Shown here in pieces: positions 3,266-48,141 of a DNA stretch of 64,000 nucleotides (positions within the stretch are counted from its first letter, which is position 1; the number at the start of each line of letters is the position of its first letter). The position numbers and the translations under genes are program-made. This stretch comes from Ginglymostoma cirratum (lineage: Eukaryota). The notes below the pieces were generated by a model. The model was not told where the DNA came from. It made no database searches and worked only from the letters and a program-made list of their open reading frames with translations. The stretch lies in contig JAHRHZ010000012.1 of the NCBI GenBank assembly GCA_024137785.1, forward strand, positions 70,042,853-70,106,852, given 5' to 3'.

Positions 3266-3282
3266 AGTGCCTGCGTCCCTCT
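3266..3282 (-). CDS. TLE1: TLE1 exon 8, 17-nt microexon: (E)RDAGT
   Basis: ggaaacag|AGAGGGACGCAGGCACT|gtaagt. It completes the phase-1 codon from exon 7 and corresponds to DREPGT of mammalian TLE1. A long pyrimidine tract lies upstream (about 3335-3365). Confidence 0.85.
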
Positions 3283-6200
3283 CTGTTTCCACAGTAACCA
3301 CAAAATGCATAGATATGGTGGGTCAGATACAAAGGCAAAAAAGAAACAAAGAAAAAAGAAAATTAGAACGCAAGCCGACAGATGCTTTCACAACAGCTTT
3401 ATTCATTCAATTCATTGCACATTTCTAATACATTTTTTTTAAAAGTTCCACATATACTTTAACATTATAGGTACATCAGTTCTTTGCATACAACCCCTGG
3501 CCTTGAAACCAATGACAGAATAAATTACTGCTGGGTTATTAAATTAAAATGGCAATGAAAGTTATTCAGCAAGTGCAATTCTTATTCATTAAATTAAATT
3601 GATTCACAACACATCGATCTTAATACAAGACTTTTTTTAAAATATGAAAAGCAAAAACTGTTCAATTTAACTGAGCAGAATGATTTGACATGACTACAGC
3701 TAAAACTTAGCAACATCAAGTTTATTTTCCCTCTTCTGACATACATTTCAGAAAGATAAAACAGTACGGATGGTTTTCTGGTAATGTCATTGTCCATCAA
3801 ACACTCTCTGGTTATCAGTAGTAGTAAAAAGACAAATAAACTGTAGTAGAATTACAAACATCTCCCATTTGTCTCCGGCTAGTGCAACCGTCTACCGGAC
3901 GTGGTTAGTGAAGCTAGAAACATTACAGTATGATCTACTTAGGTTCAGGCCAAGTCTGTTTAGATTCAAAACAGTTTTGTCTTTTGACAAAGACACCTAC
4001 CAATATATCCTGCATATCATTCCAATCTTAGCATCATCGTGTGAATATCTTTTATAGTTGTTGAATTTTTTTTAAAAAATGGCAGAGAGATAAGATCAGC
4101 AATGGGAAATAAAAAGAGAGATAGAATCAAAGCTGGTCTTTGTGTTGTTTTAGTTTACATTAGAGGAGGTAACTAATATTATATTTGGTCCAATGCACAA
4201 ATTTTGTGCTTTTTCTCAACCTTTCCAAAATTTCTTCAATACACAATACATAAATGATATTTTCATGCTTTAAAAAAAACACCATTTACATCATTCCATT
4301 CATCACTAAGAGAACATAACTTTATATTACAAAATTTGAAAGCCTAAGCCAACAATTTACAACAATATTAACTGAGGAAACAAATATTTTGGAGAGGTCT
4401 GTCTTCTAATTTCTTATTGGGGAGCAGGGGGCTAGACGATAAAGGATCAGGTTAACATCATAGGGTTTCAGGCAGCTGTACTGAATATTCATGACAAAGA
4501 GGACCAAACATTCTGCAAGGAAGGCCATGTTGCAAACAGTGACAAAACTGTAAGACATCTTGCATAACAAGTATCTCTTTACAATGACAATCTTGGTCAT
4601 CTTAAAAGCGATTGACCTATTTAGTGTATTTTCTTCACTCCTTTGGATCTAGTCAGAATGGGAAAAAATGTTGCTTTTTGCGTGTGGCTAGGTTGTTCAA
4701 GAAATCTAGAGCTTTGTGTTTTCCCCCCCCCATTTCTACACATCTGGCATCATACAGAGCACAGATAAACAATTTGTAGCCACTTGCCTTAAATGCATTA
4801 AGAATCACAGAATCCATCTTGTAAATCAACATTTTGATGGGAATAACTTTTTATTAAATTTCAAGTATTAAAACTATTCCCAATTAACGAATAAACTCTA
4901 TTCATAAACACTAGTGCATTGAGATTATTTTATTTAGTTTTCAAAAAATATTTATTAGATAATTATCGCCACCATTTGTGAATACTCTCTTTTAAAAAAA
5001 GACAATCATATTGCACATCAAATTGCAAAGTTCACTTTTTAGAACAGTTTCTTGGTGCTGGAAAATTTGCATAGATATATGGTGAAAAAGATGCACTACT
5101 GTACTCACAGGAGCATGCGCTTATGCGTCATGTTGAGCATGTGGATACATAAGTACTAAATTAAGAGGAGAAAGGCAGTCTGGTAGCAGAAGGCTTTTTT
5201 GAAACAAGAAACCAATAAGCAAACAACTTAGCTTTTGTATTAGTTTGAATGAGTAATTGTCCTTGAAGAGTTTTGGAATATCATCTGCATTCTGTCCCTC
5301 TACTTTTCGATTACTTTTACCCTCCTGGTGGGGTAGATGGGGGAGTGGTGGAAGAACAGAATAACAGCAAGGACAGAAGATGTAATATTCCTCAGCTTGC
5401 AGTTAGAATGCACATAACTCAGACTTCCAAACACCCTACATAGCTGTTTTCCTTATATTATATCATTGTTTCACTGCTGTCTGCAAGAATCATGTTTGCC
5501 TACATATTAGAGAGGCTTGCCAATCTTGTATGAGGCTTAATAGTGAGTTGGATCCAAAAGATCACAAAATTCTTCCTCAGCAATAGTCATTTCCAGGACA
5601 TGTGAATGTGGGGTTGAGGGCAGTGAAGAGGGCTAATAAGAGAAACTGAACATTTGCAATGCATGATGCCAATTAAAAATCATAAACATATTACTTAAGG
5701 CAAAATATCCTAAATATTACCTGACAAAGCATTTAGATTAAGACACTTGAAATCACTTCAATATTTGTAAAGATTTTATTTAAGACAAAGGTTCCTCTGC
5801 CTCACCCGTTTTAATTTGCAAATTTAACATTTAAGGTAGGGTGCTGGAAAAAGGAGGGGAAGAAGTGTGAGAAAAGGGTATGCTAACAGTGAAAAGAGAG
5901 CAGTTGCTAATGCTAACAGGCGTGCAACATTTGAATGGACTCCTTATCCTGATCAAACAGGTCAAAGCAATTAAAAATGAAGGTGATGCAACAACTAGCT
6001 TCCATCACATCAATACATCTATTACAGAAAGTAAATCGGATAGTTAATTTTAAGTAGTTAAGATCTACTTATTGCAAGAGGAATTATCAGTTGGATGAAA
6101 ATAGGCAGCAAATAATATGGCAGAGGAATAAGCAACATTGTATTATTTCCATCTAATTCAAACACCATTACTTGTTCTTGCCTTGATTCTCAAATACTAC

Positions 6201-6689
6201 AAACAAAAAGCCTCCCCCTCCTCTCCAGCTGTGAATTGATTTAAATGGGGCTGTAGCATTGTAATGATGTGGTAAAAGGGATTGATCTCTTGCAGGTATT
6301 ACCATTTTATTTTCTATGACTGCCTGTTTACTCGTGGACTTGGGCCTTTATTCATTTGCTGAGCACTTGCTATCATTAACATATACTCGGGAGCAATCAG
6401 CAAAGAAACTGAAGATCAGTCGACAGACAGCAAAGATTACAATTACCATGAATGCTGTGGAATGTAATACCTCTGTTTCATGTAGTTATAACATATGATG
6501 CATGAAACTGGGATGGCACAAATGACATTAAGAAGCAAGTTTGGAGTCAGCCCCAAAAATGTCATAATTTTGCCTTCATCTCCCATGTAAAGAGGAAGTC
6601 TTCTTCCATTTTCTTTAAATGTGGATAGTGTTCCACAAGTTATGCTTCGATACTGTTCACTTTAATGTAGACAGCCAACAAAATAGTCA

Positions 6690-6910
6690 TATTTGTATCT
6701 GTGCTGGAGAAACTCAGCAGGTCTGGCAGCATCTGTGGAGAAAGAAACAAGCTTTTAACATTTCAAATCCAATACAATTCTTCTTCAGTACTGATTTGGA
6801 GAGTCATTGGACTCAAAAAGTTAACAGTTTCGCCACAGAAGGTGCCAGACCTCCTGAGTTTTTCCAGCACTCTGTTTCTATTTCAGATCTCCAGCATCTG
6901 CAGTGTTTAC
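6690..6910. mobile_element. Palindromic Penelope-derived short repeat
   Basis: 42-nt inverted arms at 6702-6743 and 6828-6869 (5 mismatches), ending in tccagcatctgcagt like the other copies in this window. Confidence 0.7.
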
Positions 6911-7142
6911 TTCTGTTATAATGGTATTTGTAGCATAACACATCACAGAAAACCATAAAATTCAGAAGTTGAACAAGTTAATTTAAATCTTGGATTTTAA
7001 AAAAAACTGATTGTTTCAGCAATTGGTTAACTATACATTTTTTTTGCATCTTGTATCAGTTTTGAAACCAAACAAAAACAACATAGCTGTGATTGACTGA
7101 AATTCACAAAAGGTTTCTAATCAGGCCTGCCTTGCTTCTCAC

Positions 7143-7347
7143 CTCTGTGGTGGTCCGATTCATGGTGCTTCTTATCATCTTTCATAGAAAGGTGGGGCTG
7201 TCCACCCAAAACACTTGATAGAGTCAAAAGGCCTGCGCTGCTACCAAGTGAGGGGATTGATGGAGGCTGAAGTCCTGAAGGATGAGGAGTGAGAGGCACG
7301 GGAGGTCCATGACCATGAGAGAGATGTTGAGCCTGAAGTTGCTGTTG
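7143..7347 (-). CDS. TLE1: TLE1 exon 7 (205 nt): [70 protein letters not shown] domain
   Basis: atgatcag|CAA CAG CAA CTT...CAC AGA G|gtgaga. It overlaps ORF 7117..7299 and matches the TLE1 GP domain. Confidence 0.95.
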
Positions 7348-21800: not shown

Positions 21801-23335
21801 TCAGTAACAGTAAAATCCAGCAAGATGGTGCATATGCTATCAACTTGATTATCAGACATCAAGTCATGAATGAGCAGTAAACTCCTATGATAAAGTATTA
21901 GACCGATAAAAGGCAGCATCTCTGGGCCCCATTAAAAAACTTCATGAGCCAGTTACCAACTACTTCCTCTCTGTAGTTAACACCTCAGGCATGTCCACAC
22001 TGTTTGCAAACAAAGTCTTGTTAGACCCAAATTTGAGCTTCCAAGCTCATAAGCTTTCCATACTAAGAATGTTACTTCCATCTCTAAACTTCAGCTCATC
22101 CAAAATTCCCTGTCCATTTCTTTAAAAGCATGATATTGCTTAAGAATCAGAGAACACAAATATAAATTATTTCTTATTGTGGAGTTTCTATCTGCAGATT
22201 GGATAAAACAGAGTTTGGAGCAATTGTTGTACAACATAATATGATAAGACTAAAGTAGATTGAGAGATGCAGGGGGATGGGGAGTAGAGATGGCGATGAA
22301 ATTAAAAGGGGCGAGAGCATGGGACAAGAGAAAGGGTTAGAAGTTAAAAGGAATGTGTGGGAAGGTTATAAAACTTACTGAAACCTCAATAAGGCATGTA
22401 CATGTAAAACAGCATGAAAAATGTACTCCTAAATGTCACTGACATTGTTTCAGAACAGAATCATTAAAAATAAAATAAAAGGTCATCCCATCAGTTTATT
22501 TCACCTAATTGACTGCCAATAGCTTACCAGAGGCAATCTGACTGTAGATCTATAATTGAGAAATGATGAAAGAAAACTTTTCAAGCAGTACGCAATTCAT
22601 TTATCAGCACTAATCCACCGCTTTTATTTTTCAATCTCCAGTTGGAAAGTAATTTTGAGTCCAGATGGATTAACTAGTCTCTTTGTCTAAAGATGTCATT
22701 GGTCTTTGCCAGTGTTAATCCTTACAACGGCATGTCTAATTATCATTACAAAGTGCCTCAGAGAACTATAAAAACCAGCAGGGCATCTTCACACAGGCAA
22801 TTAGCATAAATTGATAAATGAGTAACTTGAATTTGCCAAATCCTCTCATGCACGATGCAAATTAAAATAAAAGTGGGTTGTTTTAGCAAGTTAGAAAATA
22901 TCAAAATTTACAAAATCCATTTCTTGTGACTAATGTGATACAGAAGGAAGGGGAATAAAATCGAAAGCACCAAGACTTACAGGGTTTATTTCATAAAAAT
23001 TGTGCAAAATTGACTTTCGAATCACAATATTTCAGTCACAAGGACACAGCAAAGACACAGGAAAATGACTTGATCAAGAAGCATATTGACTGGCTAAATT
23101 TCACAGCCCATTAGAAAACACAATTGTCAAAGATTAATTACAGATTTCCACTTAGCATCAAAGACAACATTATTTTATGTATAAAATCTGAATAAGGAAT
23201 TTAAAGGAATGAAGATGTCATTCTAAAGAACATTACATATATTACCCTAAAACACCAACACACAATACACAAATAAAAGTAAGTGAATAAGATGGGTATA
23301 CACACTGTAAGAGGCAGACTGGGAAGCCCACGTAC

Positions 23336-23410
23336 CCCGATGATGCTGTTCAACTCTGCCATGGTCACTTGTTTTGCACGCTCCACAGCCTGTGCCACCT
23401 GTTGTTGATG
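23336..23410 (-). CDS. TLE1: TLE1 exon 6 (75 nt): [25 protein letters not shown]; extendable to 23306 by an alternative donor
   Basis: gaacaag|CAT CAA CAA CAG...ATC GGG|gtacgt. A second donor, ACA|gtgtgt, lies 30 nt downstream. Confidence 0.95.
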
Positions 23411-24410: not shown

Positions 24411-24473
24411 TTCCTGAGACAGAAAGGGAATCACTTGTGCACAAATCGTATTCAGACGTTTGGCTATTTCTGT
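24411..24473 (-). CDS. TLE1: TLE1 exon 5 (63 nt): TEIAKRLNTICAQVIPFLSQE
   Basis: cttatccag|ACA GAA ATA GCC...CAG GAA|gtaagt. TEIAKRLNTICAQV is the TLE1-type sequence; TLE4 has AEIVKRLNAICAQV. Confidence 0.96.
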
Positions 24474-46662: not shown

Positions 46663-46707
46663 CTGTTTGTGCATCTCGATATTCAATCCATAAGACATTT
46701 CATAATA
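46663..46707 (-). CDS. TLE1: TLE1 exon 4 (45 nt): YYEMSYGLNIEMHKQ
   Basis: cctttacag|TAT TAT GAA ATG...AAA CAG|gtaagc. This is a highly conserved Groucho Q-domain motif. Confidence 0.96.
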
Positions 46708-46866: not shown

Positions 46867-46930
46867 CATAACATAGTGTCGCTGCATTTCTGTCTTTTCA
46901 CTTGCCAATTTCTCACATTCCAATTTTAGA
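46867..46930 (-). CDS. TLE1: TLE1 exon 3 (64 nt): (S)[21 protein letters not shown]
   Basis: ttttatag|T CTA AAA TTG GAA TGT...GTT ATG|gtgagt. Phase matches exon 2. Confidence 0.96.
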
Positions 46931-47544: not shown

Positions 47545-47645
47545 CTGTGATACTGAGCCTGTAAAAACTGGAACTCTTCTTTAATACGGTCCAACGATTC
47601 GGGGATGGTAAATTTGAAAGGCTGGGCTGCAGCCTGGTGCGGCGT
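47545..47645 (-). CDS. TLE1: TLE1 exon 2 (101 nt): [33 protein letters not shown](S), Q domain
   Basis: ttttctcag|ACG CCG CAC CAG...TAT CAC AG|gtgaaa. The peptide is near-identical to the vertebrate TLE1 Q domain. Confidence 0.96.
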
Positions 47646-48117: not shown

Positions 48118-48141
48118 AGGATGCCTGCTCTGAGGAAACAT
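48118..48141 (-). CDS. TLE1: TLE1 (Groucho/Grg1) coding exon 1: MFPQSRHP
   Basis: Minus strand reads gcaATG TTT CCT CAG AGC AGG CAT CCT|gtaagt. MFPQSRHP is the TLE1 N-terminus, with a consensus donor and G at -3. Confidence 0.95.

Follow-up and report, generated by a model that had tools for sequence, protein, structure and literature searches.

Gene structure

The window, a 64,000-nt stretch of shark DNA (G000:C12), holds the 5′ part of the shark TLE1 gene on the minus strand. Exons were called by tblastn with catshark TLE1 as the query and by reading of their boundaries. Coding exons 1–7 (24, 101, 64, 45, 63, 75 or 105, and 205 nt) all fall inside the window and have AG/GT ends. Once joined, they agree with catshark TLE1 (P0001) in 202 of 210 positions, and the best protein matches in the homolog search carry the name TLE1. 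The gene stands tail-to-tail with TLE4 on C12. Exon 7 of this shark TLE4 (L004 / L008, at G000:C12:68.8745 Mb) is 24 nt shorter, in frame, than that of TLE1 and of tetrapod TLE4. The TLE1 features are:

48118..48141, minus strand: coding exon 1, which holds the ATG (tblastn and boundary reading)
47545..47645, minus strand: exon 2, Q domain (tblastn and boundary reading)
46867..46930, minus strand: exon 3, Q domain (tblastn and boundary reading)
46663..46707, minus strand: exon 4, Q domain (tblastn and boundary reading)
24411..24473, minus strand: exon 5, Q domain (tblastn and boundary reading)
23306..23410, minus strand: exon 6, with two in-frame donors, giving 75 or 105 nt
7143..7347, minus strand: exon 7, GP domain, 205 nt (tblastn and boundary reading)
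7142-7141, minus strand: GT donor of exon 7, read from the sequence
7117..7143, minus strand: read-through tail GEKQGRPD-stop, whose first G is the last base of exon 7
3283..7142, minus strand: intron 7, 3,860 nt, likely the 3′ UTR of a short isoform
3266..3282, minus strand: micro-exon 8, 17 nt, ERDAGT when spliced, the first exon specific to full-length TLE1

Exon 7 opens directly into a short reading frame. On the minus strand, positions 7143–7117 read GGT GAG AAG CAA GGC AGG CCT GAT TAG, that is, GEKQGRPD followed by a stop, which confirms in the sequence the first-pass annotation's claim that reading through the exon-7 donor encodes a tail and a stop. Exons 1–7 and the tail join into one open reading frame, and because exon 6 has two donors (75 or 105 nt), the predicted short protein is 200 or 210 aa long. 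It shares 183 of 200 positions with the cow short form. With its stop after exon 7, the predicted protein keeps the Q and GP domains but loses CcN, SP and WD40. The full-length exons, from exon 8 onward, sit downstream of the tail stop; exon 8 is the micro-exon at 3282–3266, so intron 7 measures 3,860 nt. The remaining four long TLE paralogs of the shark also have 17-nt exon-8 candidates.

Conservation of the ending

The eight-residue ending sets TLE1 apart from TLE3 and TLE4 among the proteins surveyed. The survey drew 236 proteins from three homolog searches plus cluster look-ups, and 127 of these are shorter than 320 aa; the query contained the tail, one search listed the best 120 of 919 matches, and the surveyed rows are interdependent, many being mammals or members of 90% clusters. 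Of 64 TLE1-type rows, P0053 was set aside as a form spliced to exon 8 and P0152 as a partial one, which left 62 read-throughs; from the TLE3-type set we left out P0211, which is without exon 7. Among the matches listed under 320 aa, a tail of exactly eight residues ends 61 of the 62 TLE1-type read-throughs. Among the matches listed it is absent from both paralogs that the first-pass annotation had named for comparison, TLE4 (0 of 21 read-throughs) and TLE3 (0 of 23), whose read-through lengths are scattered from 2 to 141 aa. The TLE1-type exception, P0229, has the tail, and its sequence runs on past it. A complete search of 35 matches repeats the contrast, with the tail in four of four TLE1-type rows, none of seven TLE4-type and none of 23 TLE3-type.

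The tail varies by vertebrate group while its length holds. The 61 tails read GERPGKPD (39), GERHGRPD (11), GERHGKPD (4), DERPGKPD (4), GERHGKPT (2) and GERHGKQM (1); GERPGKPD belongs to mammals, GERHGRPD to birds and GERHGKPD to snakes, and the three rows with GERHGKPT or GERHGKQM are frog-like by similarity only. Named carriers comprise mammals, birds and squamates. The mammalian tail, which the first-pass annotation gave as GERPGKPD, is present in just that form in named records (cow NP_001091489.1, orangutans, bats, beaver, ground squirrel), and the rattlesnake record with the tail is titled 'Groucho protein GRG1-S'. Upstream exon peptides are also contained in 39 of the 61 carriers, a set that includes gene models and assemblies on 0.7–2.5-kb contigs. 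The shark and mammalian tails are identical at five of eight residues, differ by K/R swaps at two more and share the same stop.

Four TLE1-type records (P0039, P0153, P0230, P0231) end in DERPGKPD. They may stem from a partial TLE1 duplicate without the donor, possibly a recent repeat of the TLE5 route discussed below.

Tail length and stop position, both expected by the first-pass annotation to be conserved, persist in birds and squamates. Conservation is imperfect at the KPT and KQM endings and in the chimaera, whose TLE1 model P0007 reads GERQAKQNW onward with no stop at the tail position; the stop may have been lost in chimaeras, or the model may be an artefact that bridges it. Among the matches listed, the TLE1 tail and stop appeared in no cartilaginous fish besides this shark and in no ray-finned fish, and there was no named short TLE1 isoform of a shark.

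Transcription and candidate polyadenylation signals in intron 7

Shark RNA reads cover the sampled part of intron 7. We took coverage over window positions 4400–7100 from a poly(A)+ run (X21), about a quarter of which was read. Mean depth is 4.5 (1.6–8.5) over 21 repeat-free intron-7 bins (4400–6583) and 11.6 in the central exon-7 bin, which puts the intron-7 part at ~40% of exon depth; depth is 0 in the only bin that lies entirely within intron 6, a single 85-nt bin in one run of one study. A second raw run (X22) gave only two reads at the locus. No 3′ end or poly(A) junction appears among the reads over 4400–7100, which stop short of 3403. Loose read ends and joints gave no signal at the exon-7 donor, in tables swamped by a repeat near 6700–6900. 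Two contigs guessed to be RNA, X2 and X3, extend 967 and 779 letters further, to ~3433 and ~3621 if collinear; we left them uncounted, as both have ends near A-runs and contigs cannot reveal transcript ends. The read coverage of intron 7 fits a retained intron equally well.

A high-copy repeat that has inverted ends occupies window positions 6700–6910, within the predicted 3′ UTR; introns of the paralogs contain further copies.

Two sets of hexamers bear on where a short transcript would end:

6306..6352, minus strand: two AATAAA hexamers, at 6352 and 6311, probably not main ends
3398..3403, minus strand: AATAAA, candidate poly(A) signal, preceded by three TGTA and followed by a U-rich region, 121 nt before the exon-8 acceptor

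The first-pass annotation had pointed to AATAAA motifs about 770–810 nt downstream of the tail. Such motifs do occur, 765 and 806 nt downstream of the stop (6352 and 6311), but they are probably not the poly(A) site, because X21 reads continue beyond them at a depth of 4.8. Depth rises slightly in the distal direction along intron 7, from 3.6 to 5.3, and downstream U is low at both hexamers (0.18 and 0.24). The best candidate poly(A) signal in intron 7 is probably the AATAAA at 3403, near the 3′ end of the intron. Its downstream U of 0.64 compares with at most 0.47 in the other nine hexamers of intron 7 and at most 0.51 in 47 other intronic AATAAAs, although U-richness is expected near any 3′ splice site. 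None of the four long TLE paralogs has a hexamer within 250 nt upstream of its exon-8 candidate.

A probable short TLE1 isoform

The shark feature is the counterpart of a known isoform, described as Grg1-S in mouse and TLE1-IPA in human. Splicing of mouse Grg1 gives rise to Grg1-S, a Q+GP form that, according to the accessible text of PMC3698143, binds TCF4 and represses TCF reporters; the available parts of PMC3698143 and PMC2997355 cite Lepourcelet and Shivdasani 2002 as its source. Human TLE1-IPA (TLE1-201), reported in 2025, is a 200-aa protein with eight new residues after residue 192, produced by intronic polyadenylation (PMC12456218), and its publication upholds the first-pass annotation's statement that mammals have a WD40-less Q+GP isoform of TLE1. 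As described in the accessible text of PMC12456218, the TLE1-IPA 3′ end was confirmed by 3′RACE, the mRNA half-life is like that of the full length, the tagged protein is nuclear and dimeric, its overexpression dampens TLE1-dependent genes in human cells, and the tail falls in a region modelled as disordered. That text calls the intron the sixth, the residue position nonetheless matching the exon-7 junction, and the words 'Grg1' and 'AES' are absent from it. Truncated splice forms of TLE3 and TLE4 are cited in the available part of PMC2997355.

The shark and mammalian forms share the gene, the exit at the end of the GP exon, the eight added residues and the 200-aa length. They differ in the tail itself, GEKQGRPD against GERPGKPD, and in the predicted shark 3′ UTR, which would reach up to ~3.7 kb with a repeat inside; the shark form is predicted from gene sequence and intron reads. 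Nuclear entry, dimerisation and an effect on transcription come from tagged human and mouse forms only and would apply to the shark by analogy. The truncated TLE3 and TLE4 forms resemble these proteins in being short N-terminal products of long TLE genes, but their exon-7 read-through tails vary in length and sequence. Our literature search found nothing on the tail's depth of conservation or its relation to TLE5; Bajoghli 2007 and Lepourcelet and Shivdasani 2002 may touch on these points.

The tail matches the ending of the short TLE1 of land vertebrates, and we consider it likely that shark TLE1 yields such a short isoform by polyadenylation within intron 7, probably just before micro-exon 8. 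Since the start of shark intron 7 corresponds to the short-TLE1 ending of mammals, birds and snakes, sharks likely make the short form too, and sequence comparison suggests that it has likely been kept since the jawed-vertebrate ancestor. We infer selection on the peptide rather than the RNA from amino-acid conservation, and we also infer the 3′ end and the short protein of the shark.

Such an isoform would arise from competition between two processing events. Exon 7 could be spliced to the 17-nt exon 8, or the transcript could be cleaved at the candidate poly(A) signal that precedes the exon-8 acceptor by 121 nt. Where cleavage won, most of the 3.86-kb intron would become 3′ UTR, and exon 7 plus 26 nt would form the last coding exon. 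With Q and GP kept and CcN, SP and WD40 absent, the predicted product would oligomerise with full-length TLEs, and its presence in TLE oligomers would alter which factors they reach, in line with reports on the human and mouse forms.

Short TLE1 has so far been regarded either as a splice variant of the mouse or, in breast cancer cells, as a minor product of intronic polyadenylation. What is new here is the apparent age of the tail, the layout with a candidate poly(A) signal before a micro-exon, and the possible connection with TLE5. Conservation of the tail from shark to mammal would make short TLE1 a selected product and would argue for isoform-specific genetics. It would then be one of few intronic-polyadenylation isoforms with a history traceable that far.

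Other accounts of the conserved stretch

An RNA element could produce conservation next to the exon-7 donor, though we judge this account unlikely. Intron 7 would be retained or slowly spliced, its early stop would lead to decay or nuclear holding and so tune TLE1 dose, and the peptide would be a by-product of a donor-proximal splicing element. This agrees with coverage that is even across sampled intron 7 with no end seen (reads over 4400–7100), with the single base change that suffices for each K/R swap, and with a next exon that is a 17-nt micro-exon, intronic enhancers being common around micro-exons. It sits poorly with the spliced assemblies of exons 1–7 plus tail found in many tetrapods, and with the long paralogs, which also have 17-nt exon-8 candidates, yet in TLE3 and TLE4 show no conserved intron head. 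The human isoform, moreover, is cleaved, polyadenylated and as stable as the full length according to the available text of PMC12456218.

A chance origin, in which reading into any intron quickly runs into a stop and the donor consensus imposes G-E, is refuted by the TLE1-versus-TLE3/TLE4 survey and a random-draw null, and we give it practically no credence. The null consisted of 400,000 random intronic sequences drawn with a constant donor hexamer, each scored by BLOSUM against the mammalian tail: 15,961 have their stop at codon 9, 22 close with PD-stop, and none reaches the score of the shark tail, nor does any of 2,604 real GGT sites. A stop at codon 9 does occur at ~4% of GGT sites (94 of 2,604), and G and E are dictated by G followed by GTGAG at the donor; even so, when positions 3–8 alone are scored, 0 of 400,000 draws attain the shark–mammal score, and the TLE3 and TLE4 read-throughs range from 2 to 141 aa.

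Relation to TLE5/AES

The short form encoded by TLE1 resembles the product of a separate gene, TLE5. The shark genome has six TLE genes, of which L002 (C274:11.51-11.59 Mb) is TLE5 (best matches 96%). Downstream of it we found no CcN or WD40 exon matches before the next TLE gene, unlike the TLE1 locus, which carries the full-length exons. The last exon of shark TLE5 ends HQR-DEGVQKPD-stop (L002:1705-1731, G000:C274), in the register of the TLE1 read-through; it has GAT at the position of the TLE1 donor, and its last nine bases are the same as those of the TLE1 tail. The eight-residue register is present in 17 of 18 cartilaginous TLE5 rows among the matches listed. TLE5 (AES, Grg5) has the Q+GP architecture of the TLE1 short form, and the distance between the KxxK motif and the stop is 21 residues both in the TLE1 short form and in shark, frog, bird and mammal TLE5, as against 22 in three teleosts. 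It differs in its separate locus, in having GAT instead of a donor, and in grouping with the TLE4/TLE2 side rather than with TLE1.

TLE5 does not derive from TLE1 itself, because a TLE1+TLE5 clade is rejected. In our tree a TLE5 clade with 100/100 support excludes TLE1 and stands beside TLE4/TLE2; the AU test, run on a short alignment whose bootstrap had not settled, gave p-AU 0.012 for TLE1+TLE5 and 0.35 for TLE5 with the TLE2-like gene. At the DNA level, the TLE5 end matches the TLE1 intron head at 20 of 39 nt, the best of 15 paralog pairs (null 69/200,000). Comparison of TLE1 intron 7 (7360–3375) with the region downstream of TLE5 revealed no 3′ UTR homology beyond the shared repeat. The TLE1 intron head matches exon 10 DNA at 18–21 of 53 nt (401–2,310 of 20,000 null draws), at best a weak hint that it is an exon 10 relic.

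We tentatively propose, with somewhat less than even confidence, that the short isoform predates the split of TLE1 from TLE2/4/5, before the jawed-vertebrate radiation. TLE1 would keep it by intronic polyadenylation, TLE5/AES would be the same isoform fixed as a gene through donor loss (GGT to GAT) in a truncated duplicate, TLE2 would keep the stop alone, and TLE3 and TLE4 would have lost it. In the accessible part of PMC2997355, AES is treated as a tandem duplicate of TLE2, and short splice forms are not considered; the accessible part of PMC9692235 adds nothing on AES origin. The register shared by TLE1 and TLE5 offers a testable route to AES, isoform first and gene later, against the published one of tandem duplication followed by new function.

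An alternative that we hold only slightly less probable is a fusion: the last TLE5 exon would consist of exon 7 joined to the opening eight codons of exon 10, followed by a new stop, and convergence on a K-x-D end would account for its resemblance to the TLE1 tail. We compared bony-vertebrate TLE5 C-termini (P0242, P0250, P0241, P0347, P0238) with P0001 residues 249–256: herring, piranha, frog, ostrich and mammal-type ends match the exon 10 start (DSDGDKSD) at 5–7 of 8 positions and TLE1 tails at just 1–3 of 8. The phases of exons 7 and 10 are compatible, and the p-AU of 0.012 against TLE1+TLE5 also suits a fusion. In shark TLE5, however, 3–4 of 8 positions and the stop agree with TLE1 tails, against 3 of 8 positions with exon 10, and its DNA is nearer the TLE1 intron head (20/39) than exon 10 (best 24/53, 46/20,000, the best of 24 comparisons). 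The TLE2-like gene, a possible parent (p-AU 0.35), also has a TAG at codon 9 of intron 7, which again speaks against fusion. A mixed history of the TLE5 end is a third alternative beside an older tail and an exon 7–10 fusion, and the tail itself may go back to an early copy of the CcN motif of exon 10, or may mimic that motif.

The surroundings of TLE5 contain further TLE genes. Two full-length genes stand tail-to-tail beside it at G000:C274:11.84-12.21 Mb, as TLE4 and TLE1 do on C12; the names we use for these two long paralogs are our assumption, taken from trees and human gene order. The TLE2-like one (L005, G000:C274:11.9378 Mb) reads GTGMKLAV-stop through intron 7, with no likeness to the TLE1 peptide, and a stop at this codon is met at ~4% by chance. 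The ray ortholog of one C274 gene, P0142, carries the source label TLE4, yet groups apart from TLE4.
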